This document shows, piece by piece, positions 10,610 through 44,077 of a stretch of 64,000 bases of DNA. The stretch comes from a virus (lineage: Duplodnaviria > Caudoviricetes). The position numbers and the translations under genes were made by a program. The notes under the pieces were generated by a model. It was given only the letters and a program-made list of their open reading frames with translations. It did not search any database and was not told where the DNA came from. Location: the IMG/VR virus record IMGVR_UViG_3300029818_000001, positions 1 to 64,000 of that record. One strand, 5' to 3'. Position 1 is the stretch's first letter; each line of letters begins with the position of its first letter.

Positions 10610-10720
10610 AATTCCGCCACTCAAAATGCCGCTCTCTTATATTTATAGTTATTAGTTATTTATTATCTTTAAATAGTATTTATATATAGAGAAGCCGAAT
10701 TTGAGTGGCGGAATTGAAAA
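10610..10720. repeat. 16-bp perfect inverted repeat AATTCCGCCACTCAAA flanking an AT-rich core (copy 1)
   Basis: Arms 10610-10625 and 10700-10715. Confidence 0.9.
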
Positions 10721-10769
10721 ACGCCACTTTATAAACAATGGAAATGAAAAATATTCGCGGATTCAAAAA

Positions 10770-10787
10770 TAAGTCACTGATGACTTG
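10770..10787. promoter_or_regulatory. Operator-like palindrome copy TAAGTCA-CTGA-TGACTTG
   Basis: Upstream of terminase operon. Confidence 0.75.
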
Positions 10788-10912
10788 CAGCAAACAAGTT
10801 GCGGTGTTATATTATCGCCTGTCTGGTTTTATATTTAATCCTCTTAAGGGCGCTACTTTTCCCTTCGTATCGTCAGCCTTGACAATCAAGCGCCCGTCTT
10901 TTGAGAGGTTGT

Positions 10913-11683
10913 ATGTCTGATCAGCCCAACTCAACCACCAAAAACGCCTTCAAGGGCTTTAAAGGCTCTGCTGATCGCTCCGAGCAAAAGAAAGTCGAGG
11001 CTCGCGAAAAAGCGCATCAGCGCATCAAAAGGCGTGGCAATCCCGACGGTTTTAAAGCCGTCACGGAAGAGCAGATTAAGGCTCGCGCCGAATCTAAGAA
11101 AAAACCGAATCTTAAGCCGTCTCAGATCGCCGAAATGGAAGCGATGTGGGAATCCGGCGAGGTCACGCTAAAAGAGCTGGCAGAGCGCTTTAATCGCAGT
11201 CAGGATAATATCTCCAGACACATGACGCTGAACGGCGTCGTCAAGGGTGCCAAAGCCGAAGAATACTCTCGAATGATTAAGGAGAAAATCGCTCAGGAGT
11301 TGATGGGTGATGTCGGCGAACACGCTAAAAGAATTCGGCAAGCCAAAGATTACGCGTTAGGCCAAATTGATCTCATCAAGAAGTTGGCGGCTAACGAAAT
11401 CATCGGTGCCAAAAAGAAAAACCTCAATCTGAGCTCAACTCTGCCAGCTTTGCGAGCGCTTGACCAATATATGAAGGTGGTGTCGGGCTGTCGAAATGAA
11501 GAATACATTTTATTGGGCATCAAGGAGTTCGAAGAGAAGGTTGAGCAAGAAGATATCCCAGAGTTGATTGTCACGGAGTTGACAGGTGAAGAGATCGAGC
11601 GCATGAGACAGGAGCAGCGCGAGTTCGATCAGATGGTTGACGAAGCGGATACGGATGTCAACGAGATAGTGGATGAGTCATAA
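10913..11683 (+). CDS. Putative terminase small subunit (HTH)
   Basis: Position before terL; WESGEVTLKELAERF HTH-like segment; GAGAGG SD. Confidence 0.65.
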   Translation: MSDQPNSTTKNAFKGFKGSADRSEQKKVEAREKAHQRIKRRGNPDGFKAVTEEQIKARAESKKKPNLKPSQIAEMEAMWESGEVTLKELAERFNRSQDNISRHMTLNGVVKGAKAEEYSRMIKEKIAQELMGDVGEHAKRIRQAKDYALGQIDLIKKLAANEIIGAKKKNLNLSSTLPALRALDQYMKVVSGCRNEEYILLGIKEFEEKVEQEDIPELIVTELTGEEIERMRQEQREFDQMVDEADTDVNEIVDES

Positions 11684-14189
11684 CAGGATAAGACTGCACC
11701 CCGGTCAGATGACCGTTTGGCAATCCCCCGCGCGGTTTCGCGTGGTGGTGGCAGGGCGCAGATGGGGCAAATGCTGCAAGGCCGGAACGCTCATAGCTAT
11801 GAGCGATGGCAGCTATAAGCGCATTGAAGACGTGGCCTCTGGCGATCAGGTGTTAACCATAAGCGAGAAGACGTATAGTCTTGAGTCGAAGGCCGTCAAG
11901 CATGTTCACGACAATGGCGTTAAGGATATCGTTCGCATCGTAACGAGGTCTGGCAAGAGACTCGAAGTAACGCCGAACCACCCCATTCTAGTCAACAATG
12001 TATGGACAGAGGCTAAGGACGTCAAGCTCGGTGATCTAGCGGCAATACCTAGAGCCACAGTGTTTGGCGTTGATGAAGTGCGCTCTTGCGAGATTGACTT
12101 CTTGGCTATTTGGCTTGCGGAAGGCGACAGTAGCGGATATACGAATCAAACGCCGGAAATCATTGATGTAATGACGAAGGCGTGTGGCGAGATGGGTGTT
12201 GAATTTGTAGATTCGGCAACTGGCGATCGAAAAGCCGGTCTGTATTGGCGCTGGAGAGGCGTTAAGCCTAGAAGTAACGCATGTATAGACTTGTTGAAAA
12301 AACATGGTCTACGTCATAAAAATTCCAAGACAAAGTTCATTCCAGATTGCATATTTAGACTGCCAAAGAGTCAACTTGCGCGTTTTCTAAATTTGTTCAT
12401 TGCTTGCGATGGGTCTATAAATCGCCGGAGTAAAAATACATGGGCCGTTGAGATCGCTTTGGCAAATGAGAAAATGACTGAGCAGATTGCTGACTTATTT
12501 TTGAAGTTTGGCATTAGAGGTCAAATTTCAAAGAAGGTTCATAAGGCGAAAAGTTCGGTCAGTGGCGACAACTTCATCTCTTGGCGATTTATTGTGTCAG
12601 ATAGTAAGTCACTAATTACTTTTTGCGATCAAATAGGCGCATTGAGTAAAGAAAGTAAAGTCGCTAGAGCGAAATTGGCCGCGTCTGCATCAAGAGGTAG
12701 CTGTAATTCTTATTTGCCTATATCTCACGATGATTTTATCGAGCATCTAAGCTATAAGCCCGTGTTTAAAGGTAAGTATGGCGGCTACAACTGCGTTGTT
12801 TCGCGCGATTTACCAGAGGCTTTGAGAGAGAGATTGAATGGCTGGCGCAAGCAGACACCAAGTAGAGTTTCCGAGTATCGCTATTCATTCATCAGAGAGT
12901 TTGGCGATGGCTATTTTGATCCAATTGCAGATGGGGATTTTGCGTGGGATGAGATATCAGAGATCGAGTGTGTCGATAAGGATCAAACCTATGATTTGAC
13001 GGTTGATGGCAATCATAACTTTATCGCAAATGGTCTGGTTACGCATAATACCGCACTGTCGAAAGCCTTAATCATCCGCTACGCCAAAATGCCGCGCCGC
13101 AAGGTCTGGTATGTTGCTCCAACCTACCGCATGGCGAAGCAGATCATGTGGCAAGATTTGCAGGACACGATACCTCCGAGATGGGTTCGTAAAATGAATG
13201 ATACCTCGATGACCATTTGGCTCATCAATGGATCAGTCATTGAGCTTAAAGGCGCAGATAATCCCGATACTTTGCGCGGCGTAGGTTTGGATTTCGTGGT
13301 GTTGGACGAATATCAGGATATGTCCGAAGACACCTGGCATCGCGTCTTGCGTCCAACGATGGCAGATACGCGCGGTCATGCGCTTTTCATAGGTTCGCCA
13401 AAAAGTTATAACTTACTGCATGATGCTTATATTCTAGGTCAAGACCCGATTCGTGTCGCAAAGCGACAATGGCAGTCGTGGCAGTTTCCCACCATTACCA
13501 GTCCATTTATTCCCGTCGAAGAGATTGAGCAAGCTCGGCGCGATATGGATTCGAAATCGTTTGCTCAAGAGTTTTTGGCTTCGTTCGAAACAATGGCTGG
13601 TCGAGTTTATTACGCCTTCGATCGTCACACCCACGTCAAAAAGTGCGAATTCAACCCCAATTTGCCAATTTGGATAGGTCAGGATTTTAATATCGACCCA
13701 ATGTCTTCGATCATTATGCAGCCGCAGTTGGATGGTAGCATTTGGGTGGTGGATGAGATTGTCTTATTTGGCTCAAATACCGAAGAGAGCGTCGACGAGA
13801 TCGAGCGAAGGTATTATCGCTATCGTAACAATGTCACCATATACCCGGACCCTGCCGGAACTCAGAGACAACACGCCAGAGGCGAAACCGATCTGGATAT
13901 CTTCAGAGAGCGTGGCTTTCGACGCATTAAGCATCGCGCGCAACACCCTCGGGTGGCTGATCGCGTCAACTGCTTTAATAAGATGCTGAGATCGACAGAC
14001 GGCACGATAAGACTGTATGTGGACCCAAGTTGCAAAGGCTTAATTGAGTCGCTGGAGCAGACGATTTATAAAAAAGGCTCCAGGGATATTGACAAATCCA
14101 TTAGCGTCGATCATGCAACAGACGCCGCTGGCTACTGCCTAGAAGTGGAGTTTTCGCGCAAAGTCAAGATTTTGGGCGTCAGTATTTAA
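11673..14189 (+). CDS. terL: Terminase large subunit containing an intein
   Basis: AGRRWGK|T Walker A, LRGVGLDFVVLDEY Walker B, GQDFNIDPM nuclease, DHATDA. Confidence 0.95.
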   Translation: MSHNRIRLHPGQMTVWQSPARFRVVVAGRRWGKCCKAGTLIAMSDGSYKRIEDVASGDQVLTISEKTYSLESKAVKHVHDNGVKDIVRIVTRSGKRLEVTPNHPILVNNVWTEAKDVKLGDLAAIPRATVFGVDEVRSCEIDFLAIWLAEGDSSGYTNQTPEIIDVMTKACGEMGVEFVDSATGDRKAGLYWRWRGVKPRSNACIDLLKKHGLRHKNSKTKFIPDCIFRLPKSQLARFLNLFIACDGSINRRSKNTWAVEIALANEKMTEQIADLFLKFGIRGQISKKVHKAKSSVSGDNFISWRFIVSDSKSLITFCDQIGALSKESKVARAKLAASASRGSCNSYLPISHDDFIEHLSYKPVFKGKYGGYNCVVSRDLPEALRERLNGWRKQTPSRVSEYRYSFIREFGDGYFDPIADGDFAWDEISEIECVDKDQTYDLTVDGNHNFIANGLVTHNTALSKALIIRYAKMPRRKVWYVAPTYRMAKQIMWQDLQDTIPPRWVRKMNDTSMTIWLINGSVIELKGADNPDTLRGVGLDFVVLDEYQDMSEDTWHRVLRPTMADTRGHALFIGSPKSYNLLHDAYILGQDPIRVAKRQWQSWQFPTITSPFIPVEEIEQARRDMDSKSFAQEFLASFETMAGRVYYAFDRHTHVKKCEFNPNLPIWIGQDFNIDPMSSIIMQPQLDGSIWVVDEIVLFGSNTEESVDEIERRYYRYRNNVTIYPDPAGTQRQHARGETDLDIFRERGFRRIKHRAQHPRVADRVNCFNKMLRSTDGTIRLYVDPSCKGLIESLEQTIYKKGSRDIDKSISVDHATDAAGYCLEVEFSRKVKILGVSI
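11772..13049 (+). mobile_element. Intein (426 aa) with LAGLIDADG homing endonuclease
   Basis: Starts CCKAGT, TPNH block B, WLAEGD and FIACDGS motifs, ends VTHN followed by Thr +1. Confidence 0.93.
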
Positions 14190-14194
14190 AAAAA

Positions 14195-14212
14195 TAAGTC
14201 ACCAGTGAATAA
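14195..14212. promoter_or_regulatory. Operator-like copy TAAGTCA-CCAG-TGAATAA (weaker second copy 14227-14244)
   Basis: Between terL and portal. Confidence 0.65.
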
Positions 14213-14269
14213 ATTACTTGCGCCAGTAAGTAAGTAATGACATACTATTGATAAATTTTTCAATGGCTT

Positions 14270-15808
14270 GTGATGGATCAAGAAAAACTTAGAAAATTGA
14301 TCGAAAAGAGACATCCTGAGTATGTCGATCTTTTGCCGCACTGGCGCTTCTTAGAGTCCTGCTACAAGGGCGGCAGAGCGTGGTTTAAAGATAACATTTT
14401 TCGATACATCAAGGAAGGCGAAACCGAATACGGCGATCGCATAGATAGAGCTTATCGATTTAATCACTCGCGTGAAGTGGTGGATTTGGTCGACAAGTAT
14501 CTATTTAAGGCGCCCATTATTCGCAACACCGGCGACGCTTCGGATGAGGTTATTCTGTTTTGGGATAAAGCAACCAAATCGGGCTTAACTATCGATCAAT
14601 TCATGAAGCAGTTGTCCAGAAAGACCTCCATCTTCGGCTCGGCTTGGGTTATTGTCGACAACACCTTCGTCGTCAAAGAAGAAGGGGTGATTAGCGTTGC
14701 AGACATTAAGGACTCAGGCGGTCAAATCTTTTCTTACTTGGTTACTCCTGATCGCGCATTAGATTTCGCCTACGATGAAGATGGCGAGCTGTTGTGGCTT
14801 TTGGTTTATGAGGAAGTCAGAGACTCGCAAGACCCGTTCGAATCCAGCGGCGAGATGATAGATCGCTATCGTCTGTGGACTAAGATGGGTTGGTATCTGT
14901 TTTCCACAAGTAAAAGCCAAACCATTGGCGGCGACATCGTTGTGAATATCGAAGATTCGGGCGAGCATGGCTTAGGCATCGTCCCAGGCTTTCGCGTAGA
15001 TAACTACATCACTGATGAGTTGTGGGCTGCGCCATCGCTAATCGGCGACATTGCCTATCTCGACAGAGCTGTTGCCAACTACCTCTCCAATCTTGACGTT
15101 ATTATTCAAGATCAAACCTTCTCTCAACTGATAATGCCAGCGCAAGGCTTAATGCCAGGTGATGACGACTATAAAAAGTTGATCGAGATGGGAACCAAGC
15201 GCATCTTTCTGTATGACGGGGAGCGAGGTGGCGAGCCGAAATATATCGGCCCAGACCCGAAACAAGCCAATGTGATTGTTGGGGTTATCTCCAAAATCAT
15301 TAACGAGATTTATCATACGGTCGGCATGGCCGGCGAGCGCACCAAACAAGACAATGCGGTGGGTATCGATAACAGTTCTGGCGTCGCTAAAGCCTTTGAC
15401 TTCGAGCGCGTGAATTCCTTATTGACCTCCAAGGCCGCCTCTTTAGAGAACGCAGAGCGCAAATTAGTTAAGCTGGTCAATCTATGGGCCGGCAATAAGA
15501 GTTTCGATGACACGCTGGTTCAATACGCCAGATCGTTCGACGTTCGTAGCTTATTTGACGAGTTTGATATTGCCGCCAGACTGTCGCTGATGGAAGCGCC
15601 AGACTCGGTGCGTCGTGAACAAATGGACATTATGATTGATAAGCTTTTCCCGATGTTGGGTAGCGATGTCAAGAATAAGATGCGAGCTGAGCTGAAATCT
15701 TGGCCGCCTAAGATGGAAGATATTTCTGTCGGACCTTCTCTTCTGCGCGGGGCGAAAGCCGCAAACAACGAGAGTGAGAAGGCTGAAGATGTTAAGGGAG
15801 CCGCCTAG
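14270..15808 (+). CDS. Portal protein
   Basis: 512 aa directly after terL; HPEY..W..L..CYKGG N-terminus typical of portals. Confidence 0.85.
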   Translation: MMDQEKLRKLIEKRHPEYVDLLPHWRFLESCYKGGRAWFKDNIFRYIKEGETEYGDRIDRAYRFNHSREVVDLVDKYLFKAPIIRNTGDASDEVILFWDKATKSGLTIDQFMKQLSRKTSIFGSAWVIVDNTFVVKEEGVISVADIKDSGGQIFSYLVTPDRALDFAYDEDGELLWLLVYEEVRDSQDPFESSGEMIDRYRLWTKMGWYLFSTSKSQTIGGDIVVNIEDSGEHGLGIVPGFRVDNYITDELWAAPSLIGDIAYLDRAVANYLSNLDVIIQDQTFSQLIMPAQGLMPGDDDYKKLIEMGTKRIFLYDGERGGEPKYIGPDPKQANVIVGVISKIINEIYHTVGMAGERTKQDNAVGIDNSSGVAKAFDFERVNSLLTSKAASLENAERKLVKLVNLWAGNKSFDDTLVQYARSFDVRSLFDEFDIAARLSLMEAPDSVRREQMDIMIDKLFPMLGSDVKNKMRAELKSWPPKMEDISVGPSLLRGAKAANNESEKAEDVKGAA

Positions 15809-15875
15809 CGGCATTGTAACAATAGAGCCGAGTGACAGGTTCGAGTGTTTGACCGAGTGACAGGTCAGGTGAAAA

Positions 15876-16754
15876 ATGAAAAAACTAAAACTGTTTGAAA
15901 GATTGATGCTTTTGTTGATGGGCGTCCAGTTGATGAGTGTCGTGCCTGAAGGACCAGGCGGTCAGGGGGAAGCTGACAAGCCAAGCGGCGGCGAGCAACA
16001 GGGAGACGACAGCAAGGATGCAAATGGTGACGACAATAAGGATATTGACGTTCCCAATAAAGACAAGGAAAAAGGCGAGTCAAAGCTCTCCGATGGCGAA
16101 GCAAAGCTTTTGCAAGAGCTGATGGAGAAGAAAAATTCGCTGAAATCAACTGCGGCAGAGTTGGCTCAAGTGAAGGAGCAACTGAAGCAGTTTGAAGGCG
16201 TAAATCTGGATGAAGTCAAAGCTTTATTGAAAGAGCGTCAGGAAAGCGAAACGAAGCAACTCGAAGCGAAAGGCGAGTGGGATCGGCTCAAGACTAACTT
16301 GGTTGAGCAGCATACTGCTGAGAAAGCCAAGCTGGAAGAGCAGATCAAAACACTGTCGGAGGCTTTAAATGGCAAGGATGAGTCCATTGTCGAGTTGACC
16401 ATCGGCTCTGCATTCAGAGGCTCTAACTTTATCGCTGAAGAGTTGACGCTGACACCTTCGAAAGCGCAGATCATCTATGGGTCTCACTTTGAATATGAAG
16501 GTGACAAGTTGGTAGGTTATGACAAGCCACGCAACAGTAGCGAGCGCACCATGTTAATCGATGCCAGCGGCGAGCCGCTGAAGTTCGATGCGGCGATTGC
16601 AAAAATTATCGAAATGGATTCTGATAAAGATCGACTGATGAAGGCCAAAGTAAAATCTGGCGCCAATTCAGGAACCGCACCGACTACCGGTCAACCTAGG
16701 CCCACTGAGTCTAAGGGGATTGGTCGTATCGCGGGGGCGCTGAATCAAAACTGA
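15876..16754 (+). CDS. Capsid scaffolding protein
   Basis: Acidic low-complexity N-terminus, long coiled coil, position before capsid gene. Confidence 0.75.
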   Translation: MKKLKLFERLMLLLMGVQLMSVVPEGPGGQGEADKPSGGEQQGDDSKDANGDDNKDIDVPNKDKEKGESKLSDGEAKLLQELMEKKNSLKSTAAELAQVKEQLKQFEGVNLDEVKALLKERQESETKQLEAKGEWDRLKTNLVEQHTAEKAKLEEQIKTLSEALNGKDESIVELTIGSAFRGSNFIAEELTLTPSKAQIIYGSHFEYEGDKLVGYDKPRNSSERTMLIDASGEPLKFDAAIAKIIEMDSDKDRLMKAKVKSGANSGTAPTTGQPRPTESKGIGRIAGALNQN

Positions 16755-16778
16755 CGGCGTGAGTTTGTAAGGGATAAG

Positions 16779-16796
16779 TAAGTCACGGATGACTGT
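16779..16796. promoter_or_regulatory. Operator-like copy TAAGTCA-CGGA-TGACTGT
   Basis: Upstream of major capsid gene. Confidence 0.7.
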
Positions 16797-16847
16797 TTTT
16801 TAGGAATAAAGGAAATTTTTTAAGGATAATCTTAAGGAGATTAGGGA

Positions 16848-17777
16848 ATGGCATTACTCATTGATGAGGCTAAGAAGTTAAGTAACAACCAATTGGAAAT
16901 CGGCGTCGTTGAAGAAATCATCGACAAAGAAGACCTCTTTTCCATTCTGCCGTTTATGTCGATCAACGGCAAGGCGTATGTCTACAACCGCGAAAACGCG
17001 CTGTCTGAAGGCGACTTTCTCGATCCAAGCGAAACCGTGAACGAAGGCGCGGCAACCTTCACTGAAGTTGTTGCCAAATTGCGCATTCTGATCGGCGACG
17101 TGGATGTCGATAAATTCATGCAAGGCACTTTGAGCGATCACAACAACCAAAAAGCGATTCAAATCGCTCAAAAGGCAAAGGGTCTCGCTCGTAAATTCAA
17201 ACGCACTTTGGTTATTGGTAATGCAACCAGTTCGCCAAAAGAGTTTGACGGCTTGGGTGAAATTGCCAAAGCCATCACTGTTGGCGACGCAAGCAGAACA
17301 GTTGCGGCAGCCACCAATGGTGCGGCTTTGAATCTGTCCATGCTGGATCGACTGTTGGATGCCGTGCCAAACGGCGCCGATGCGTTGTTTATGCCTTCTC
17401 CAGTCGTTCGTGCCTTCCGTGCGCTAATGAGAACTACTGGCGGCGGCACCTCTGCGGCTGAAATCATGATGCCAGCCTTCGGCCGTCCTATGTTGACGCA
17501 TAACGGTGTGCCTATTCTGGTGAATGACTTCATTCCGCTGAATGAAACTCAGGGCACCGCGGATGGCGTAACCACTTCCGTTTATGCCTTGCGCTTAAAC
17601 GAATATGACGGCTTACACGGTCTGTATGGTGGCGGCACGGCGGGTATCGTTGTTGAAGACATTGGAACCGTTCAGGATAAGGACAGCACAAGAACGAGAT
17701 TGAAGTGGTATTGCGGTTTAGCCTTGAAATCGACAAAATCGATGGCAAGACTGAAAGGCTTGACGAATATCGTTTAA
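16848..17777 (+). CDS. Major capsid protein (HK97-fold type)
   Basis: 309 aa; KAYVYNRE, PKEFDGL, RTRLKWYCGLAL; strong SD; terminator follows. Confidence 0.88.
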   Translation: MALLIDEAKKLSNNQLEIGVVEEIIDKEDLFSILPFMSINGKAYVYNRENALSEGDFLDPSETVNEGAATFTEVVAKLRILIGDVDVDKFMQGTLSDHNNQKAIQIAQKAKGLARKFKRTLVIGNATSSPKEFDGLGEIAKAITVGDASRTVAAATNGAALNLSMLDRLLDAVPNGADALFMPSPVVRAFRALMRTTGGGTSAAEIMMPAFGRPMLTHNGVPILVNDFIPLNETQGTADGVTTSVYALRLNEYDGLHGLYGGGTAGIVVEDIGTVQDKDSTRTRLKWYCGLALKSTKSMARLKGLTNIV

Positions 17778-17799
17778 AGTCAGCGGTTTATGATTTTAG

Positions 17800-17825
17800 G
17801 AAGGGGCGCAAGCCCCTTCTTTTTT
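17800..17825 (+). terminator. Rho-independent terminator
   Basis: GAAGGGGC-GCAA-GCCCCTTC plus T-tract. Confidence 0.9.
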
Positions 17826-17882
17826 GTCTGCGAATTGTGGGCTAAAAAACTGATTTACAAGGAATTTATTTTTGTGTTAGAG

Positions 17883-17900
17883 TAAGTCACCTATAACTTA
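17883..17900. promoter_or_regulatory. Operator-like copy TAAGTCA-CCTA-TAACTTA
   Basis: 14 bp upstream of next start codon. Confidence 0.7.
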
Positions 17901-17914
17901 TTTATGGAAGAGTA

Positions 17915-18307
17915 ATGCCGCGCTTAATTATTAAACAACCTGGCATGGAGACCTACACCGGCTTTATGTCGGATGTCGAGTTCATTGATGGTATCAGCAT
18001 CGAAGATGTGACTAAGTTGCAAGCGCAGCGCATCGCAGGTGCGATCGCTGTCGAGATGGAGGATGGCGCTGACCCCAGTGCTGCATCTGAATTGCTACGG
18101 TTAAAAGCAGATCAAGCTCAGCCTGAGTTCAAGGAGCCTGAAGCTGTCGCCCCAGTCAAGCCTAATTATGATTTTACCGAAGAGTCTCTTATGGCGATTG
18201 CCGACAAGGATGGCATTATCGGTCTGCGTGAGTTCGCCAAGTCTTATGGCATCAAAAGCAACTCCATTATGGGCTTGATCGACGCTCTGTTGGCGCTCAA
18301 GGCTTAA
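17915..18307 (+). CDS. Hypothetical virion-morphogenesis protein
   Basis: Position after capsid gene; C-terminal small helical domain. Confidence 0.65.
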   Translation: MPRLIIKQPGMETYTGFMSDVEFIDGISIEDVTKLQAQRIAGAIAVEMEDGADPSAASELLRLKADQAQPEFKEPEAVAPVKPNYDFTEESLMAIADKDGIIGLREFAKSYGIKSNSIMGLIDALLALKA

Positions 18308-18311
18308 TTGA

Positions 18312-19067
18312 GTGGATATCTACCGCAATAACCAATCTGTCGCACTGACGGTCGAAATTGACGGGCCTGCTCTGTCGGCTACTTATCGCGTTTTCGACCA
18401 AAATGATCAGGTTATTATCGACACCATAGAGGTTGCCGGATTTATCCAGAATAGCGTTGCTGTCGATATCATCGTCGACGCTGCGTTTAATCAGCTAGCC
18501 GAAGGTGAGGTTAGAGCCATGCGTCGCGTTGAGATTACGCCTTATGACGTAAATGGTGCGCTTAAAACCTCTACAGTCGAATACATTATCGAGGCTTTGC
18601 CGACATCGATCATAGGTGTCAACTCTTATCAGACGCTTAGTCAGGCTAAGTTGACCGCTATGGATATGCCTCATTTGGATATCTGGAACACAGCAGACGA
18701 CAGAATGATTGTGTCGGCCATGACCGAGGCACACTTTCGATTGGGTCAGTTTGCTTATCGAATGGAAGACGATCGCGGTCTTGATATCGTGGTTGAGAAC
18801 ATCCGAAGCTTAACGATTAATGACTTGCTTTTGTTGCCATCAGCCTTTTTGATCGCCTTACGCAAGGCGCAAATATCCGAAGCCGACATTGTGATGGGCG
18901 GTGGCTCAGTTCATCGCAAGCGTGAGGATGGTCTAATGAGTGACACCGTTGGTGAGTCCAAGATTATGTTTAGACCTGGTAAGCCAGTTGTGTTGCCTGT
19001 GGATCGCCGCACCTTGAGCTACCTGAGCGGCTACATTTATCACGGATTGTCGCTAACCAGAACATGA
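18312..19067 (+). CDS. Putative head-tail adaptor
   Basis: NSYQTLSQA, LRKAQ..EAD, SDTVGESK motifs resemble head-tail connectors. Confidence 0.6.
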   Translation: MDIYRNNQSVALTVEIDGPALSATYRVFDQNDQVIIDTIEVAGFIQNSVAVDIIVDAAFNQLAEGEVRAMRRVEITPYDVNGALKTSTVEYIIEALPTSIIGVNSYQTLSQAKLTAMDMPHLDIWNTADDRMIVSAMTEAHFRLGQFAYRMEDDRGLDIVVENIRSLTINDLLLLPSAFLIALRKAQISEADIVMGGGSVHRKREDGLMSDTVGESKIMFRPGKPVVLPVDRRTLSYLSGYIYHGLSLTRT

Positions 19068-19822: not shown

Positions 19823-19847
19823 TGACTGATATTTCACGGATGCGATT

Positions 19848-20195
19848 ATGATTTTTCCAAACGTCCCCTGTCGGATTTTTCAGCTATTGGGTGACAAAGA
19901 CGAATACGGCGAGAGTCAATACGCGCGACCAACGCCAGCGCATTGCTCGGTAGTCAAGCTAAGTAATAGCTCTAAATCCACCAGCGTTAGAGCGGATAGC
20001 TCGGCCTCGCGGGGCAGCGCTAAGGAGGTATTGGCTGACGCGCGGCTGCTGTTTAGCGTCAATACGCAGATCAAAATTGGCGATCGTCTGGAGATATACG
20101 GCTTTAAGCTGGAGGTGTCTAGCGTTCGTGCGCATTTTCAGGTCTTTCAGAACAAGATAGATCATTGGCAAGTGGACTTAAACGCATGGGCGTAA
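19848..20195 (+). CDS. Putative head-closure protein
   Basis: 115 aa beta-rich; D.YGE...., IKIGDRL; synteny. Confidence 0.6.
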   Translation: MIFPNVPCRIFQLLGDKDEYGESQYARPTPAHCSVVKLSNSSKSTSVRADSSASRGSAKEVLADARLLFSVNTQIKIGDRLEIYGFKLEVSSVRAHFQVFQNKIDHWQVDLNAWA

Positions 20196-21006: not shown

Positions 21007-21020
21007 GGAGATTTTTTTAC

Positions 21021-21548: not shown

Positions 21549-21551
21549 TTG

Positions 21552-21569
21552 TAAGTCATTCGTGACTTT
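21552..21569. promoter_or_regulatory. Operator-like copy TAAGTCA-TTCG-TGACTTT
   Basis: Directly after tail tube stop. Confidence 0.75.
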
Positions 21570-21584
21570 GTAAATATCAACGTA

Positions 21585-21613
21585 AAGCCCCTTGAATTAA
21601 AGGGGCTTGTTTT
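21585..21613 (+). terminator. Terminator-like hairpin
   Basis: AAGCCCCTT-GAATTA-AAGGGGCTT, short T run. Confidence 0.55.
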
Positions 21614-21624
21614 GGAGAGTGAAG

Positions 21625-37061: not shown

Positions 37062-37687
37062 ATATTAGAGCGGGAGTTTACAATCCTCAAACTGGTCAAA
37101 TCATAAGGGTTGTCGGCTGCCCTGAGCAGCATTTAAATCTTCAAATTGACCACGAAACCGAGGCGGCATTAATACTTACTGATGACATTGGCATGAAAAC
37201 ACACTATGTCAACGTTGATGCGTCGCCACACACTTTTGTCGCCATACCAGAAAGCCCCTCTGAGTTTCACGATTGGGACCCCATTGATAAGGCGTGGGTT
37301 TTGTCTGTTGAGCGTATGAGATTTGATCTGCTAGATCAGATAAGCTACCTCTTCATAATAAAGAAGCATTTGCCAATATTGCACGATAGCAAAACGATGG
37401 ATGCCGATCAAACGGCTATGGACAATATAGCCGGAAAGCTTAAAGAGATCGAAATCTTGGGTCTGAATTACCCGACAGATATGCTTTTATGGCGTGACGC
37501 GAATAATGACAATCACAGTTGGCCCGACGTTGAGAGCTACAAAACCTTTCTGGAGGGTCTGGTAGTGGCGATATCACAAAGAACTACGCGACTTTACTTA
37601 GATTCCTGGCAAAAAAAGGCCGAGATAGATGCATTAGATAGCCTCAACATAGCGTCTTACGATGTTGAGCAAGGGTGGTCCGCTTAG
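37058..37687 (+). CDS. Putative tail fibre-associated/assembly protein
   Basis: Directly after J; WRDANN and YDVEQGW ends seen in fibre-associated proteins. Confidence 0.55.
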   Translation: MNIRAGVYNPQTGQIIRVVGCPEQHLNLQIDHETEAALILTDDIGMKTHYVNVDASPHTFVAIPESPSEFHDWDPIDKAWVLSVERMRFDLLDQISYLFIIKKHLPILHDSKTMDADQTAMDNIAGKLKEIEILGLNYPTDMLLWRDANNDNHSWPDVESYKTFLEGLVVAISQRTTRLYLDSWQKKAEIDALDSLNIASYDVEQGWSA

Positions 37688-37696
37688 TATAATAAG

Positions 37697-37714
37697 TAAG
37701 TAACCATTGACTTA
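37697..37714. promoter_or_regulatory. Operator-like copy TAAGTAA-CCAT-TGACTTA
   Basis: Upstream of holin-like gene. Confidence 0.7.
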
Positions 37715-37740
37715 TTAATTAAATCACAGGTAAACTATGT

Positions 37741-38106
37741 ATGACAACCAATCATCAAAACAAGGAAGAAGAGATGCCGGGTGAACACCAAAACCACGTT
37801 GCTGTCAATACATGGCTGTGGTCAGACCGATTAATGTGGTCTGTAATTCTTATGTTCTTACTAGGCTCTGTAGCGAGAACTTTTGTTAGTAATGAGCCTT
37901 TTGATGTCAAGAAGTTTGTTGGCGAGATTATTTTTTCAGCAATTGGCGCTGTCATGATGTATTCAATGGGGCTAATGCAGGGAATGAGCGAGGCGCAAAT
38001 TGTTTGTTTCGGAGCGATGGCAAGTCTCGGCGGCATCAGAAGCTTCGAATGGTTTATTAAGATTGCCAAGAATGTCAAGGCGGCATCTTCGATCGGAGAT
38101 AAGTAA
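37741..38106 (+). CDS. Putative holin
   Basis: 121 aa, 2-3 hydrophobic segments, basic C-terminus. Confidence 0.55.
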   Translation: MTTNHQNKEEEMPGEHQNHVAVNTWLWSDRLMWSVILMFLLGSVARTFVSNEPFDVKKFVGEIIFSAIGAVMMYSMGLMQGMSEAQIVCFGAMASLGGIRSFEWFIKIAKNVKAASSIGDK

Positions 38107-38465
38107 TGACGGGCAAATTGGATCTGCCTGCAATCAAAAGAGGCTCCACATGGCGCTATTGGCTTCAGTGGTTAAGTCACGATGAAGAGCCTATTTTGTT
38201 GACCGGCTGTGACATAAACATGCAGATTCGCAGCAGCGTGGATAGCCCAGTCATACTTGTTGATCTGTCTCTAACCAATGAAAGGATTACCAAAGTTGAC
38301 GACACTGGCGAGATTTTTCTTCACATACCTCACACCATCACCTCATTCATAAATCGAAACATAGATTTTGGAGTTTATGATTTGGAGATAACACACCCAA
38401 GTGGCGAGGTTACAACCTTAATAGAGGGTAGTGTCGAATTCTCCAAGGAGGTGACGCGCAAATGA
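38106..38465 (+). CDS. Hypothetical structural protein (Ig/BppU-like)
   Basis: IKRGSTW, GVYDLEI...G.VTTLIEG.V pattern. Confidence 0.6.
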   Translation: MTGKLDLPAIKRGSTWRYWLQWLSHDEEPILLTGCDINMQIRSSVDSPVILVDLSLTNERITKVDDTGEIFLHIPHTITSFINRNIDFGVYDLEITHPSGEVTTLIEGSVEFSKEVTRK

Positions 38466-38680
38466 ATACCATAGTTTTATATCCGGTCAATAATGGCCCA
38501 GCCATTATAAAGACGGGAAAGCAGGGGCCGCCAGGCATCGGAGGCTCCGAGGTGACGCCAGAATTCATCGGTGCTTTATCGGTAACGGCGAGACTGGCTG
38601 AGTTCGACACAGATGAGAAGCGGGCGGCTGCTCGTGACAATATAGGACTTACCGTCATCGATGGCGGAGAATTTTTTTAA
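38462..38680 (+). CDS. Hypothetical protein
   Basis: 72 aa, GKQGPPG, ARDNIGL..IDGGEF. Confidence 0.6.
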   Translation: MNTIVLYPVNNGPAIIKTGKQGPPGIGGSEVTPEFIGALSVTARLAEFDTDEKRAAARDNIGLTVIDGGEFF

Positions 38681-38698
38681 ATCAAGGAGAGATAAGTA

Positions 38699-39154
38699 AT
38701 GCCAACTATTAAAATCAAACGCGGCTTAAAGGCTAATTTACCCACTTCGGGAATGTCAGAGGGCGAGCCGCTTGTTACTACTGATCGCGGAACGCTACAT
38801 ATTGCCACTGGCGCAGCAACTAAGCTACCGGTTGTTCCTGCTGTTGACGATCTGACCACACTAGCGTCCATTGACGGAGCAGCAGACCTGCTTTTGCTTC
38901 ATGACGCAAGCGAGGCATCAGGTCAGAAAGAGAAGAAGATTACCTTCAACAACTTCAAGGCGGCGTTGAATATTCCCGAAGGCACAGCCGACGAGAAAGT
39001 CGCTGTGGTATCAGGCGGCACGAGTGGCTTCATCTGGGGAACGGATGGGACCGATGGCGTCTTGCGCATGAATAACTCGATGAGTTGGACTAAGGACCCT
39101 GCTAACGGTTTTGTGACGCTTGCTGTCGCCATGGTTGATGGAGGTGTTTTCTAA
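38699..39154 (+). CDS. Fibre protein with Mtd-N/hyaluronidase-N-like domain
   Basis: IKIKRGLKANLP...GEPLVTTDRG.L.I; ends VDGGVF. Confidence 0.65.
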   Translation: MPTIKIKRGLKANLPTSGMSEGEPLVTTDRGTLHIATGAATKLPVVPAVDDLTTLASIDGAADLLLLHDASEASGQKEKKITFNNFKAALNIPEGTADEKVAVVSGGTSGFIWGTDGTDGVLRMNNSMSWTKDPANGFVTLAVAMVDGGVF

Positions 39155-39156
39155 TT

Positions 39157-40686
39157 ATGGCCGGTATCAGACTAAAGCGCGGCACGAAGGCACAGATTGA
39201 TGCAGCCAAGGCCGCATCGGGACTTGCTGAAAGTGAGCCTTATCTGATTACTGACGAAGGTCGCATTGCTATCGGCACCGGAGCGGCAGACTATAAGCCT
39301 GTCGCCATGGGGGATGTTGATATTGTTGTCTCCAACGCAGCCCCAGCTCAGCCGTATGACGGTCTTGTTTGGATAGACACCGAGTCAAACCCCGTTGGCG
39401 ATTCGGCCTATCAAGTGGCTGTTAATAACGGGTTTGTTGGGACTGAGCAGGATTGGCTCGCGTCATTGCAGGGTGACGCTGGGCCTCAAGGAGATACCGG
39501 TGCCGATGGGTCTCAAGGACCTCAAGGGATACAGGGTGAAGCTGGACCTCAAGGAGATACAGGGCTGCAAGGTCCTCAAGGGATACAGGGTGAAGCTGGA
39601 CCTCAAGGAGATACAGGGCTGCAAGGGCCTCAAGGGATACAGGGTGAACCCGGCATTTCAGCCTATCAGGTTGCGGTTAATGGTGGCTTTGTTGGAACTG
39701 AGCAGGAGTGGCTGGACTCTTTAGTTGGACCTCCCGGCGAAGCGATGCTTTACGACCCAGCGACAGCAGCCAGCACCTTCTTGTGGCTTGTGGATATTGA
39801 GCGCACCGAACAGCAAATTATCGATTGGCTTCCCACCACAGCGGTCGGTGGTCTATCCTCTTTGCGTAATGACTCAGTGCTGTTGGCTGATTTGGCAGGT
39901 AGCTCTATTGGCATGAAGAATGTCGCCAAGGATGCCGATTTGGTAAATAGCTTGGTTTGTGATAATTCAGTAGCTTGTGCCGTGTTTGTAAACTCATCCA
40001 TCGCTAGAGCTGAGTTATTCGAATCTTCCGTCGCTAGAGCTGAGTTATTCGAATCTTCCGTCGCTATGGCAGAGATTATTGGCTCGACTGCTGCTAGAAA
40101 TGACATATATGGTATCTCTGCGGCTAGAGCTGACTTGTTTATATCTACTGTAGGTATGATTGAGTTTGCGTCATCAAGTCTCGCGATGGCCGAATTGGCA
40201 GCGTCCTCTACAATTCGAGCTGAATTGTTCGCATCTTCTTTGGCGATGGCGAAGGTCGCGGAAAGCTCTCATTTGCTCGTCTTCTTTGACAGCGCAACCT
40301 CACGCTTAGAGATGTTTGGCTCTGCTATCGTCGAGAAGGCATTTAGAGACTCCACAAATGCGATGACGCTGATCGATAGTATTGCTACCAATGTGTCGGC
40401 ACTCACTACCAACCAAAACTATGCAAGTTTGACTAGCTCCAAGGTCTTCGCGACATCTGTAAACACGGGCACAACCGCGATATCGGGTGAGAGAGGGGCA
40501 CGATACTTTAATCACTTACAGGATGGTGTGACAAATTCGACGATGGTGGTGTCTAACAATCCATCTCCAGGAAACCCTTGGGCATTGTGCGCTGGAAGAA
40601 TGTTTGAAGGCTTACAAGTGATGGCTAGATCAGGTAGCACCACTTCAACGGCAACTCGCACAGCTCGCGTCGTGGTAATGGAGTAA
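39157..40686 (+). CDS. Fibre protein with Mtd-N-like head, collagen G-X-Y repeats and decapeptide repeats
   Basis: IRLKRGT..EPYLITD; SAYQVAV..GF.GTE..WL.SL.G flanking GPQG repeats; ARAELFESSV repeats. Confidence 0.75.
   Translation: MAGIRLKRGTKAQIDAAKAASGLAESEPYLITDEGRIAIGTGAADYKPVAMGDVDIVVSNAAPAQPYDGLVWIDTESNPVGDSAYQVAVNNGFVGTEQDWLASLQGDAGPQGDTGADGSQGPQGIQGEAGPQGDTGLQGPQGIQGEAGPQGDTGLQGPQGIQGEPGISAYQVAVNGGFVGTEQEWLDSLVGPPGEAMLYDPATAASTFLWLVDIERTEQQIIDWLPTTAVGGLSSLRNDSVLLADLAGSSIGMKNVAKDADLVNSLVCDNSVACAVFVNSSIARAELFESSVARAELFESSVAMAEIIGSTAARNDIYGISAARADLFISTVGMIEFASSSLAMAELAASSTIRAELFASSLAMAKVAESSHLLVFFDSATSRLEMFGSAIVEKAFRDSTNAMTLIDSIATNVSALTTNQNYASLTSSKVFATSVNTGTTAISGERGARYFNHLQDGVTNSTMVVSNNPSPGNPWALCAGRMFEGLQVMARSGSTTSTATRTARVVVME
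39520..39648 (+). repeat. 54-bp tandem repeat x2.4 (collagen-like coding)
   Basis: Units start 39520, 39574, 39628. Confidence 0.9.
40001..40066 (+). repeat. 30-bp tandem repeat x2.2
   Basis: TCGCTAGAGCTGAGTTATTCGAATCTTCCG. Confidence 0.9.
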
Positions 40687-41133
40687 ATGATGGAAACTTA
40701 CGCACTGATACAAAGTTACGAAATCATTGGCTGGATTGATAATCCTCCCGGTAGGCCTATTCCCAAGTTTCCCGCCGATATCTTGGTATTGCCCGCCGAT
40801 ATCGCCAAAGAAGATCGAGAGGCAGCGCAGTATATCGACGGCATTGTCACGATTGACCCCTATTACACGCCGGAAGAGCCAGTCATTGTCGACCCCATTA
40901 CGCAGGTGCCTAATAAGGTCTCTATGCGGCAGGCGAGACTGGCATTGCACAACGCTGGCTTGCTATCCGCCGCAGACGCTTTTGTTCAGTCGTTGGGCGG
41001 GGCCGCTCAAATCGAATGGGAATATGCGCAGGAAATCAGGCGCGATCATGCATTGGTTGCGGCACTCCAAGCGGAGCTGCAATTGACTGATGAACAAATC
41101 GATCAGTTGTTTATTGCGGCCAATGCGCTGTGA
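40687..41133 (+). CDS. Hypothetical fibre-associated protein
   Basis: VSMRQARLAL...IEWEYA..I.R..L motif typical of phage tail-associated proteins. Confidence 0.65.
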   Translation: MMETYALIQSYEIIGWIDNPPGRPIPKFPADILVLPADIAKEDREAAQYIDGIVTIDPYYTPEEPVIVDPITQVPNKVSMRQARLALHNAGLLSAADAFVQSLGGAAQIEWEYAQEIRRDHALVAALQAELQLTDEQIDQLFIAANAL

Positions 41134-41432
41134 ATACTCAGTCAACAATAACCCTTGAGCCAGTATGTGGCTATCTTGTGCGGGTGTATCCCGATCAAGT
41201 AGAGACCGACACTCACGCCAAATATAAGGCAGTCATGACGATCGATGTTGATGGCGATACGGCTGTGGCAAAGGGTTATTGCGGCAGTAATTGGAACACC
41301 AGAAATCGCCGCGATCTATTTAATGAACTAAAAAATCGTGGAATCAAAACTTTAAATTACGAGCGGTATGACTCTGGGCGCTTGATTAAATCGAGCGTGA
41401 TAAAACTTAGCAGGAATAAGAATGACACCTGA
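41130..41432 (+). CDS. Hypothetical protein
   Basis: 100-aa ORF overlapping both neighbours. Confidence 0.55.
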   Translation: MNTQSTITLEPVCGYLVRVYPDQVETDTHAKYKAVMTIDVDGDTAVAKGYCGSNWNTRNRRDLFNELKNRGIKTLNYERYDSGRLIKSSVIKLSRNKNDT

Positions 41433-41898
41433 ACAATTATTAGACGAAATAACGAACGGCCCGCTGGCTTTGGAGCTGGCTGATGCACTAGCCTCTGGCG
41501 ATGACGTGGCTATTTGCGCGGCATTGAATAGTAAAGATATACCCAGCCAAGGCTGGATTTCGGTCGCCGATTTCGAAACTTGGTGCGCATCAAACGACGC
41601 GGAGTATAAGCGCATCGAGGCTTTATCGAGAGACGAGACCAGCCCGTTTTACTCTGCCGCAAATTCTCTGTTGAGGCGATTGTCGGTCCAAAATACCGAG
41701 AATGCGATCAATACCGGCGCACCGCCGATAGCTTCTTTGTTGGATGCGTGGCCGTATGTTGATGCGAACTCTAAAGAGTCTCTACTGGCGCTGGGGCGCA
41801 CATTGATTAGCAGGGCGGAGCAACTGGGCGAACATATCTCACTTAAAAACGTAATCGACGCTCTGTATAACGAAGATGGCGCACGGAGGGTATTGTAA
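41422..41898 (+). CDS. Hypothetical protein
   Basis: 158-aa coupled ORF. Confidence 0.65.
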   Translation: MTPEQLLDEITNGPLALELADALASGDDVAICAALNSKDIPSQGWISVADFETWCASNDAEYKRIEALSRDETSPFYSAANSLLRRLSVQNTENAINTGAPPIASLLDAWPYVDANSKESLLALGRTLISRAEQLGEHISLKNVIDALYNEDGARRVL

Positions 41899-42326
41899 TG
41901 CCATTAACTACAGTCGAAACACAAATTACATGGTCGGCGGCCAGCTCTATCACACTGAGCAATGCCACACAAACCGACTCGGACACATTTACGCTTCATG
42001 ACTCGTGTATCTCAGCGAGTGTTCAAATACGAGTGACCAATCAGGGATCGCCACAGTCGGGAGATGCGCTGTCAGCTAGGCTTAAATGGAGCTGTGGGGA
42101 TATTCTTGAAAATACAGGGGACGATTTCGACACTGATCAACATGCTGAATTCCTAGGCAGATTGGATACGTTTGCTACGAATAATCCGGGTGAAAGCCCC
42201 GCGATGCGCACATATCACTTATCATTAGGTGGAGCCAGGAAATTCAAGTTATCTATTTTAGGCGCACAAGCTGCTTCACGGAACCTAGTCGTTCATGCGC
42301 GTGTTATTGAACAGAGAGCTAACTAA
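41898..42326 (+). CDS. Hypothetical beta-rich protein
   Basis: 142-aa coupled ORF. Confidence 0.65.
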   Translation: MPLTTVETQITWSAASSITLSNATQTDSDTFTLHDSCISASVQIRVTNQGSPQSGDALSARLKWSCGDILENTGDDFDTDQHAEFLGRLDTFATNNPGESPAMRTYHLSLGGARKFKLSILGAQAASRNLVVHARVIEQRAN

Positions 42327-42328
42327 TA

Positions 42329-43180
42329 ATGGTATTTATACCGCGTTGGGAGAGGCATAAGCAGCGATTGTCGAGGGACTACACGGTCAATTGGGGGCAT
42401 CAATTGACCGAACACATACATAGCATTCTCCTTCCTCACTCTGATTTGAGGCTATATAACCGCGAGCGCGAAGTTAACCGCTCATCATTCTCAGGTGTGA
42501 GTGTGTTTGATGAGTCAATCTATTTAAATAACAGTATTCTTGCATATGATGGTCTCACCATTCCATCGACAAACAATCTAGCGCTATTAGCAGTAATAGA
42601 TACAAAAGACTTATCAGGTGGCGGGCAGATTGCGGCACGAGATAATTTCGCATTAAGTCGTCGTAATTATCAATTTCGAATAGGTTCCTTTAATGGGGAT
42701 AGTGTTAGCATCTCTACAATACACTGGCCTGGAGTTGTCAGTAATCTTCTAGGCTCCTGTGGACGAGAGAGTGGTGTGGTTGCCATCTCCAACAAAATAG
42801 GGGCAGTAAGCGAGGGCGCTGTCAATGGGGTTTTGAATTACGGAGTGGCTCCGTCTTCTTTTTCAAATAATAATCCACAGCTTTGTATCGGAGTTAGAAG
42901 AGAGAGTTCGAACTGGGTCGAGCGACCCCTTGGTTTGATTCTGAATATGTTTGTAGAGTTTTCGTCTGCGCTGACTACCGATGAAGTGTTGGCGTTGTCA
43001 GAGGCTCCCTACCAAATACTAAAACCCCGCGTCATCTACTTCGACATGGGTGCAACCGCAGCATTCAAATCCGCCCCTATCAAATATCACAATAGCGCTA
43101 ATCTAATCACGCCTGTCGCCAAGGTGTGGGATGGCGCAGCGTCGAGCTGGAAAAACAGCACGATTAAGGTAAAGGGGTAG
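42329..43180 (+). CDS. Putative LamG/concanavalin A-like lectin-fold protein
   Basis: Beta-rich; PQLCIG...ALTTDEVLALSEAPYQIL C-terminal pattern of LamG-like phage proteins. Confidence 0.5.
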   Translation: MVFIPRWERHKQRLSRDYTVNWGHQLTEHIHSILLPHSDLRLYNREREVNRSSFSGVSVFDESIYLNNSILAYDGLTIPSTNNLALLAVIDTKDLSGGGQIAARDNFALSRRNYQFRIGSFNGDSVSISTIHWPGVVSNLLGSCGRESGVVAISNKIGAVSEGAVNGVLNYGVAPSSFSNNNPQLCIGVRRESSNWVERPLGLILNMFVEFSSALTTDEVLALSEAPYQILKPRVIYFDMGATAAFKSAPIKYHNSANLITPVAKVWDGAASSWKNSTIKVKG

Positions 43181-43222
43181 GGAGATTGAGTCGCTTCCTG
43201 TATCTAAACACTTAACTGTTAA

Positions 43223-43966
43223 ATGGAATTCAATCAAATGGAATTCAACGTGAAAATCAAGCGAGAAAAGAGACAAAATAGAAAGCGCAAATTAAGCGCC
43301 CCTGAGCCGTTTTTCGAAGAAATAGTGCTCTCGGTAGATAAGAAGCATTTGGAGCCGATACGCGCTATCAATGAAGCTCAGGGGCACTATTTAAGCTCAA
43401 TTCGACAGAATGTTATCACATTCGGGGTCGGTCCCGCTGGGACGGGGAAGAGTTATTGCGCGGGAGGCTATGCGGCAGATAAGTTGAGAGATAAGGAGGT
43501 TGATAAGCTGATCATCACTCGCCCCTGCGTGGAAGCAGGCGAGTCGTTAGGCTTTCTTCCCGGCGAGTTGGAGGATAAGTTCGCACCCTATATCGACCCC
43601 TTCCGCGAAATTCTCAATGAGCGATTGGGCAAAAGCTTTGTTGACTATCTAATCAAGCACAAGCGCATCGATGCTAAACCTCTAGCCTACATGCGAGGCA
43701 ATACCTTTAAGAATTGCATCGTTATTTTAGACGAAGCGCAAAACACCACGCCGACGCAAATGAAGTTGTTTTTAACGCGAATAGGCGAGAACTGTAAGGT
43801 AATCATCGACGGCGACATTCAGCAAAAGGATATCCGGCAACAAAGTGGTTTAGCCGATGCTATCGATCGTCTAAGTCAGATTAAAAACGTGGGTGTCGTT
43901 AATTTTGACGCCGACGATATTGTTCGCTCCAGAATCGTCAAGGATATTATTAAAGCCTACGGATAA
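43223..43966 (+). CDS. phoH: PhoH-family ATPase
   Basis: GPAGTGKS, ITRP.VEAGE.LGFLPG, YMRGNTF, DEAQN, GDIQQ.D. Confidence 0.96.
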   Translation: MEFNQMEFNVKIKREKRQNRKRKLSAPEPFFEEIVLSVDKKHLEPIRAINEAQGHYLSSIRQNVITFGVGPAGTGKSYCAGGYAADKLRDKEVDKLIITRPCVEAGESLGFLPGELEDKFAPYIDPFREILNERLGKSFVDYLIKHKRIDAKPLAYMRGNTFKNCIVILDEAQNTTPTQMKLFLTRIGENCKVIIDGDIQQKDIRQQSGLADAIDRLSQIKNVGVVNFDADDIVRSRIVKDIIKAYG

Positions 43967-43973
43967 TAGGCAC

Positions 43974-44077
43974 TTTTCAATTCCGCCACTCAAATTGCGT
44001 CTCTCTAATATAAATAACTTATATAATATCTTTTCTTAATAACTATTATATTTAGAGAGCGTGAAAATGAGTGGCGG
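43974..44077. repeat. CCGCCACTCA inverted repeat flanking AT-rich core (copy 2)
   Basis: Arms 43983-43992 and 44068-44077; nested CTCTCTAA/TTAGAGAG; 43974-43996 is the exact reverse complement of 10698-10720. Confidence 0.9.

Follow-up and report, generated by a model that had tools for sequence, protein, structure and literature searches.

A repeat-flanked A/T-rich element, putatively DNA-unwinding, at the module boundaries of an uncultured phage and its relatives

Two repeat-flanked, A/T-rich loci lie 33 kb apart in a 64,000-nucleotide stretch of viral DNA (Duplodnaviria; Caudoviricetes), one ahead of the terminase genes and the other ahead of the replication genes. The stretch, referred to here as the window, is the first 64 kb of the 74.5-kb IMG/VR virus contig IMGVR_UViG_3300029818_000001, which is judged 68% complete. 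Both loci belong to a previously undescribed element that recurs, at about three copies in each genome, throughout a large group of phages and phage-plasmids of ~100 kb; a search of the literature found no description of it. Our preferred reading, held tentatively, is that the loci are putative protein-flanked DNA-unwinding elements—lytic origins, or sites of initiator and helicase loading (or arrest)—built on the design of staphylococcal pathogenicity island (SaPI) origins and of oriL and oriR in phage SPP1. Two lines of evidence carry this reading: genome-specific repeats, oppositely oriented, flank the most meltable DNA of the genome on either side, and distant relatives keep the element at the same boundaries between modules.

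Each locus places outer 10-mer arms and short inner shoulders, both inverted, around an almost pure A/T core:

10610–10720, no strand: locus 1, an imperfect palindrome
10614–10623 and 10702–10711: outer arms of locus 1, CCGCCACTCA and TGAGTGGCGG, spanning 98 bp
10632–10637 and 10688–10694: shoulders of locus 1, CTCTCT and AGAGAAG
10638–10687: core of locus 1, 50 bp, 46/50 A+T (92%)
43974–44084, no strand: locus 2
43983–43992 and 44068–44077: arms of locus 2, CCGCCACTCA and TGAGTGGCGG, spanning 95 bp
44001–44006 and 44054–44059: shoulders of locus 2, CTCTCT and AGAGAG
44007–44053: core of locus 2, 47 bp, 43/47 A+T (91%)

This anatomy bears out the initial annotation, which had described the arms, the CTCTC and GAGA(G) shoulders, the almost pure A/T cores and the spans of 95–98 bp from the letters of the window. 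Two finer details that it had reported also hold: the 23-mer at 10698–10720 is the exact reverse complement of 43974–43996, and the ATG at 44067, which opens the gene downstream of locus 2, falls within the right arm of that locus. The annotation had called the loci twins. As a pair they are real, and a search across the record (both strands, 74.5 kb) returned the arm 10-mer exactly four times, that is, only at the two loci, against 0.117 copies expected from base composition; yet the pair belongs to a larger family, of which each genome has about three copies.

The two cores are the sole 45-bp segments of the 74.5-kb record with at least 88% A+T. By nearest-neighbor stability, a thermodynamic proxy for melting only, the loci are also its two least stable 50-bp duplex segments, with z scores of 5.3 and 5.0 where the next segment reaches 3.7. 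What the loci have in common is their arms, shoulders, base composition and outer flanks. Their A/T cores show no significant likeness in either orientation (p ~0.1), and while the gap between arm and shoulder is 8–9 nt in both, the sequences filling it are unlike among the four half-elements and have no complementarity within either locus. The outer flanks prefer an inverted relation of the two loci (alignment score 47 vs 35); aligned whole, the elements slightly favor the direct relation without the flanks and the inverted one with them, and we treat the element as near-symmetric. No DnaA boxes of note lie near the loci. Two resemblances, of the CT-rich shoulder to lambda and rrn boxA and of TATAAATA in some cores to a T4 late promoter, were dropped as unsupported.

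A megablast search with 10 kb found no match among GenBank phages, and relatives were reached via proteins. Protein searches group the phage with Pseudomonas phage nickie, Rhizobium phage RHEph10 and the SSU5-type phage-plasmids of Salmonella, Klebsiella and Escherichia; judged by these similarities, the source phage is an uncultured relative of all three. Gene order is equal, with identities of ~60% for the large terminase subunit, TerL, and 27–32% for the phrog_2500-family protein encoded at 44067. The closest relatives are a 93-kb contig from a Methylomicrobium metagenome-assembled genome, with an 87% identical protein, and a 99-kb contig encoding the same winged-helix protein as the gene beside locus 1.

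Every fully examined relative carries the element before the gene of a TerS-like (small terminase subunit-like) protein and before the phrog_2500–DnaB–primase module, usually with a third site as well, and nine complete relatives have three copies. In nickie, for example, imperfect palindromes of 70–75 bp occupy both syntenic gaps and a third copy lies at 98.1 kb. SSU5 has copies at 33.45 kb and 78.3 kb and a third that bridges the ends of the record, ahead of the TerS-like gene. RHEph10 also has three copies, of which the replication-side one is degenerate and shifted two genes upstream, to the head of a PhoH/phrog_2500 operon. Exactly three significant copies were found in each of five more SSU5-type genomes. 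Five complete IMG/VR genomes, G001–G005, all carry the element before both the TerS-like gene and phrog_2500. The third copy is clear in G003, G004 and G005, G001 has a repeat-flanked AT-rich candidate at ~83.6 kb, and the single third-copy candidate inspected in G002 had no repeats. Three further genomes, found via the winged-helix gene, show the same arrangement. With the present record ~68% complete, a third copy may be missing from it. The GenBank records of SSU5 (NC_018843.1) and Cyrano (OV696614.1, 108322–108378 plus 1–17) are both linearized inside the terminase-side A/T core, which may mark a physical end, a break of the assembly at the palindrome or a start taken over from the reference.

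The pattern extends to 41 distinct loci encoding a phrog_2500 homolog, each 3.5–5.7 kb long. Across a range of 38–63% G+C, the least stable DNA of the locus lies at most 350 bp upstream of phrog_2500 in 35 of the 41, and a G/C-containing 7-mer is repeated on the left of the core and as its reverse complement on the right in 18 of them, against 0.4% of control positions. Ranked by instability over whole genomes, the elements take places 1–3 in RHEph10 and in G005, 1–2 in G002 and G003, and 1, 3 and 4 in nickie.

The arms are equal or nearly so among the copies within a genome. From one genome to another they are unrelated: this phage has CCGCCACTCA, SSU5 types have CCTGCTTCCG and, outside it, TCTGGGAG, and RHEph10 has TCCGGTCC…CTCCCTTC. 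Many genomes have two tandem 8-mers per side (ACTTGGGT, ACTTGGGG, ACTTATCA, ACTTATGC) at ~10-bp spacing, inverted on the opposite side; the usual two-per-side form is ACTTGGG(G/T). Orientation relative to the genes is flipped in the third copies of G003 and G005 and in the helicase-side copy of Cyrano, and the helicase-side copies of G002 and G003 are without any right arm. Since copies can be flipped and cores are unlike, base composition and symmetry look to be what is required, with no directional signal. The exact arm-pair pattern of the window had no match in IMG/VR. Among 185,579 prokaryote genomes it had 59 matches, none with an A/T core (all ≤60% A+T); these belong chiefly to a Kribbella repeat family, the three printed have cores of 34–47% A+T, and they were set aside as unrelated.

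Because the arms are genome-specific, a genome-encoded binding protein is indicated. Genes next to the loci supply two candidates:

6800–10273: conserved operon (two ParB-like proteins, two ABC-type ATPases) lying immediately ahead of the winged-helix gene and locus 1
10273–10599, plus strand: winged-helix protein of the phrog_900 family, 108 aa (PHROG match, AlphaFold2 model, Foldseek)
44067–44726, plus strand: all-helical protein of the phrog_2500 family (219 aa), its gene conserved as the first one behind the replication-side element

The winged-helix protein is the best candidate arm binder. Its gene is the final one of the ParB-like/ABC-type ATPase operon and stops 11 bp before locus 1, and in 12 of the 12 genomes checked its counterpart ends just before the terminase-side element, in G001 with one open reading frame between. 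The AlphaFold2 model (predicted local distance difference test, pLDDT, 81) has three helices followed by a beta-hairpin wing. Foldseek matches it to PadR and MarR proteins with DNA (probability 1.0, E ~1e-3); among its other matches are RTP, a replication terminator protein, TubR and AspA, which bind centromeres, and ScpB, a partner of SMC. Profile matches to MarR, PadR, RctB-HTH and DnaD_N are weak. A recognition helix of the form T(T/N)KxSxQFxxR accompanies CT(T)GGG or ACTTAT repeats in SSU5, G002–G005 and G007, and this phage, nickie and RHEph10 have other recognition helices and other arms. This correspondence between helix and arm sequences is suggestive only. The initial annotation had instead named the 44067 protein as a possible, autoregulated binder, a role for which it shows no recognizable DNA-binding fold. 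Its all-helical model is confident (pLDDT 87.5), but it has no match in Pfam, PDB sequence profiles, Foldseek PDB, BFVD or the ESM Atlas, and the best hit of a wide VIA-align comparison, the N-domain of the polymerase alpha B-subunit at Z 5.7, is below the level meaningful for helical bundles. We regard it as a less likely alternative, or a partner.

Terminase and replication genes lie downstream of the loci:

10913–11683, plus strand: TerS-like DNA-binding protein, phrog_867, with probable start ATG 10913
11673–14189, plus strand: TerL, 838 aa, intein-containing
44826–45125, plus strand: Hfq-like gene
45125–46531, plus strand: DnaB-like replicative helicase
46528–47583, plus strand: primase

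How a protein-flanked unwinding element might work can be sketched as follows. A phage DNA-binding protein would occupy the arms on both sides of the core, and arm binding together with negative supercoiling would open the A/T stretch between them; the inner shoulders may then pair within each strand and keep the core open. A DnaB-type helicase from the genes downstream of locus 2 would next be loaded, probably bidirectionally. The terminase-side copy would act as a second origin or, alternatively, as a tightly bound fork-stalling site that aids the switch to concatemer synthesis near the packaging start. Occupancy of the arms would also damp expression of the 44067 gene, because its start codon lies in the right arm. 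The initial annotation had proposed two origins bound by one initiator, or else a shared signal coupling replication and packaging. The former fits the stability minima, the genome-specific flanking repeats and the conservation at the replication module, with origin activity remaining putative; the latter is possible.

Known origins provide two templates for this design. SaPI origins have at least two iterons per side of an AT-rich centre, pointing in opposite directions and read by a winged-helix domain (PMC9371898). As in the origins of SaPIs and other phage-inducible chromosomal islands, read by Rep or PriRep, repeats here flank an AT-rich centre and vary in sequence (there between elements, here between genomes), and an origin-like site sits beside a helicase gene (PMC9371898). 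Inverted flanking repeats, at least two per side in relatives, and an easily melted centre are both present in the element family; indeed, relatives of this phage carry exactly two 8-mers per side. The present phage departs from that template in having one 10-mer and one hexamer per side, a DnaB-type helicase without a winged-helix tail, and a winged-helix protein encoded as a separate 108-aa gene beside locus 1, 33 kb from the helicase. It has two copies of the site, and complete relatives three, with an origin role that is putative. SPP1 offers the second template: a single phage protein binds two sites made up of repeats and an AT-rich stretch, of which one lies at the initiator gene and the other among the late genes, and oriR has been proposed to arrest forks and set off concatemer synthesis (PMC6316719; PMC3485210). 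Here too, repeats are combined with an AT-rich element at two distant sites, the first close to the replication genes and the second in the late region, and the SPP1 series gp38-gp39-gp40 (initiator, small protein, DnaB-family helicase) is paralleled in position by phrog_2500, a small gene and a DnaB-type helicase. The SPP1 repeats, however, are direct and oriL lies inside gene 38, whereas the repeats here are inverted around the core and sit between genes; no sequence or clear fold similarity to gp38 was found for phrog_2500, and complete relatives have a third copy.

More distant likenesses are also instructive. The oriS and oriL of herpes simplex virus are intergenic palindromes with a central A/T stretch and inverted sites for the origin-binding protein, in three copies per genome; the likeness is an analogy of design only, since that virus infects eukaryotes and its initiator, UL9, is unrelated. 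Lambda cosB presents its R3-I1-R2 sites, inverted around a bend, to the winged-helix protein gpNu1 just upstream of the small terminase gene, P1 parS has inverted protein sites flanking a bendable A/T-rich stretch, and N15 has four scattered centromeres. Like cosB and parS, the present loci place inverted sites around an A/T-rich stretch, and locus 1 shares with cosB a position just upstream of the small terminase gene. cosB and parS are single-copy, however, whereas the element occurs also at the replication module and at a third place, and is the least stable DNA of its genome. In sum, the iteron and unwinding-element kind of origin-like site is known; the fixed three-copy layout at module boundaries and the stand-alone winged-helix neighbor appear undescribed for this large phage-plasmid group of medical relevance.

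Several observations weigh against an origin role. Three copies per genome, all at the heads of modules, would also be expected of a regulatory or boundary element. This genome has one 10-mer and one hexamer per side and no iteron array, and its helicase is of the ordinary DnaB type, without the winged-helix origin-reading domain of SaPI Rep. No recognizable initiator was found; phrog_2500 has no Pfam match and its fold matches are weak. The link between recognition helix and arm comes from nine genomes only and holds in 8 of the 9, the exception being G001. In several genomes the element must itself be transcribed or contain a promoter, since the start of the next gene falls within it or immediately beyond it. 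Phage-plasmid relatives have separate plasmid-type replicons (Rep_3 with iterons in pABTJ2), so that a lytic origin is expected and has not been located. GC skew is uninformative because nearly all genes lie on one strand.

The window also contains sigma70-like promoters linked to a quite separate motif:

10770–10813, plus strand: promoter of the TerS-like/TerL operon, inferred from conservation
10770–10786, 12605–12620, 16779–16794, 21552–21567 and 37697–37712: intergenic palindromes TAAGTCA-N4-TGACTT(A)
44737–44752, 47581–47596, 53865–53880, 61661–61676 and 62318–62333: further intergenic copies of the same palindrome

At 10770–10786 the palindrome TAAGTCA-N4-TGACTT overlaps the -35 box TTGCAG (10785–10790), which is followed after a 17-bp spacer by the -10 box TATATT (10808–10813); this promoter scores below the threshold of the consensus scan. 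In relatives the palindrome overlaps a perfect -35, with TGACTTGACA followed by 17–18 bp and then TACAGT or TAAAGT. A second such operator-promoter unit lies at ~44739, after the phrog_2500 gene. The TAAGTCA palindrome is probably an operator through which a phage regulator controls most operons. As these promoters form a motif of their own, the terminase genes do not need locus 1 for their promoter.

The most serious competitor, though one we hold somewhat unlikely, is that the element marks module boundaries as a control site: the winged-helix protein on the arms would serve as repressor, roadblock or insulator in timing three co-directional blocks (virion, replication and small early-type genes), or would control a promoter hidden in the A/T core. 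All copies do head a gene block on the coding strand, the RHEph10 replication-side copy has moved to the start of its operon, and the protein next door has a PadR/MarR repressor fold. In this phage, RHEph10 copy 3 and G001–G004, start codons fall within the right arm or immediately behind it, leaving no space for another promoter; homologs of the 44067 protein begin MSG(G/N/S/E), and the AGAGAG of locus 2 occupies the Shine-Dalgarno position for this gene. (In G001, at 71741–71340, and in G004, at 54148–53756, an extra gene of ~130 aa begins in the terminase-side right arm, much as 44067 does at locus 2.) Locus 2 contains an exact TATAAT (44022–44027), and SSU5-like cores hold a conserved, operator-like TAAGT-N-ACTTA. 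Yet the consensus scan found no sigma70-type -35/-10 pair at 16–18 bp in either locus, which would leave an activator-dependent promoter as a possibility, and neither the unlike cores nor the occurrence of copies in both orientations relative to the genes is what such control would predict. A distinct and abundant class of promoter-operators is present, one unit of it after locus 1, and extreme A+T over 45–75 bp at the stability minimum of the genome exceeds what an operator needs. A role in organizing DNA without replicating it, which we think improbable, would make the terminase-side copy a terminase site of the cosB type, or all copies centromere- or condensation-type sites read by the winged-helix protein with the ParB-like proteins and ABC-type ATPases. 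In every genome the TerS-like gene follows closely on the locus 1 copy. The conserved operon that encodes these proteins stands ahead of it (and is kept in SSU5, nickie and RHEph10 too), and TubR, AspA and ScpB are among the Foldseek matches of the adjacent protein; many relatives, moreover, are plasmid prophages. But a packaging site is normally unique, not present in about three copies, and the lytic relatives nickie and RHEph10 retain the elements. The integrase and tRNA gene in the replication module mean that this phage may not be a plasmid; no ParA-type partition ATPase was seen among the window proteins scanned, which did not cover every open reading frame; and sites of this kind have no need to be the least stable DNA of a genome.

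Could the element act as RNA instead? A read-through transcript might form a stem that is cut by RNase III, that protects the upstream 3' end, or that masks the ribosome site of the 44067 gene, along with its ATG, until processing, a scheme to which we give little credence. Both strands of both loci fold well beyond shuffled sequences (-36.7 to -40.1 kcal/mol, z -5.1 to -8.5), the ATG and AGAGAG box of the 44067 gene would pair with the left arm, an Hfq-like gene is nearby, and T runs follow two SSU5 copies and, in the window, locus 2 only. Against this, neither locus shows complementarity over the 8–9 nt that separate 10-mer from CTCTCT, the right arm is absent altogether from the replication-side copies of G002 and G003, and tandem 8-mer arms across genomes of 38–63% G+C are the pattern of protein sites. 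A terminator scan flags neither element, and at Rfam gathering thresholds the sole match is the tRNA. Compensatory changes seen by eye in the inner arms of SSU5-type copies failed a formal count: over 16 copies, pairing reaches 93% at the 14 inner-arm pairs, a level that shuffled partners match, and both sides change in only 2 of the 14. Selection for pairing is thus not supported, and the conserved outer repeats look like protein sites. Least credible of all, and bordering on the negligible, are sites that invert the 33-kb virion module, as the initial annotation had suggested, or a miniature transposable element that landed twice. The outer flanks do match best when inverted, the exact 23-mer included, and arms around a short noncoding core recall a miniature inverted-repeat transposable element. 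All nine genomes mapped nevertheless agree in gene order and strand between the TerS-like gene and the helicase, and the only recombinase found, the integrase at 49833–50801, adjoins a tRNA gene and not either locus. There is no clear target-site duplication, nor any A/T-core copy of the arm-pair pattern in the genome or viral collections. The gaps that hold the elements are syntenic even between phages with flanking proteins of only 27–60% identity; the elements are ancient residents, not insertions.

The protein-flanked unwinding reading can be carried further, to a broader proposal that we consider doubtful: three fixed, possibly cruciform-prone unwinding elements would run lytic replication in phages of the SSU5, nickie and RHEph10 types and divide the ~100-kb genome into virion, replication and accessory domains; a stand-alone winged-helix protein, encoded beside the terminase-side copy, would read them, and that copy would couple fork arrest or concatemer formation to the start of packaging. 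If true, this multi-origin architecture would be one not described for tailed phages of such kind. We found no paper mapping lytic origins or module-level control in SSU5, pHCM2 and pKpn, in Acinetobacter phage-plasmids, or in the lytic relatives used against plant pathogens. A short, recognizable element with a candidate binder encoded next to it offers an experimental handle on replication start and stop sites, on minireplicons and on the ties between replication, packaging and timing. The element may equally serve annotation, as a landmark for module boundaries in metagenomic contigs of the group.

Locus 1 is separated by 190 bp from the TerS-like gene, and TerL is followed by portal, capsid and tail genes. 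The TerL intein spans residues ~41–459 and contains a LAGLIDADG homing-endonuclease domain; relatives have a 420-aa TerL without an intein. A PhoH-like gene precedes locus 2, and the Hfq-like, DnaB-like helicase and primase genes (44826–47583) sit behind their own operator-promoter at ~44739. The 99-aa Hfq-like protein is a borderline Hfq/Sm match (26.5 bits, cut-off 27); its gene is translationally coupled to that of the DnaB-like helicase and holds the position of the SPP1 helicase loader. Downstream of the primase come an integrase beside a tRNA gene, a DNA polymerase and a ligase:

49833–50801: tyrosine integrase, within the replication module
49626–50801, region shared with the integrase: tRNA-Leu(CAG), minus strand, adjoining the integrase

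The phage may integrate, unlike the SSU5-type relatives that live as plasmids. Two repeat arrays elsewhere in the window deserve mention. At the contig start, window positions 1–133 hold six tandem 19-bp units (TTATAACATAACAGAGATG), with a partial unit at ~73397 of the full record; this array is iteron- or centromere-like and may explain the assembly break at the contig start. The other, at 52539–52834, consists of 9- and 12-bp coding repeats (GAAAGTGAA and GAAGAAAGAGGA) in the gene of a 637-aa CobT-like protein, where they encode an acidic stretch rich in Glu, Lys and Ser.

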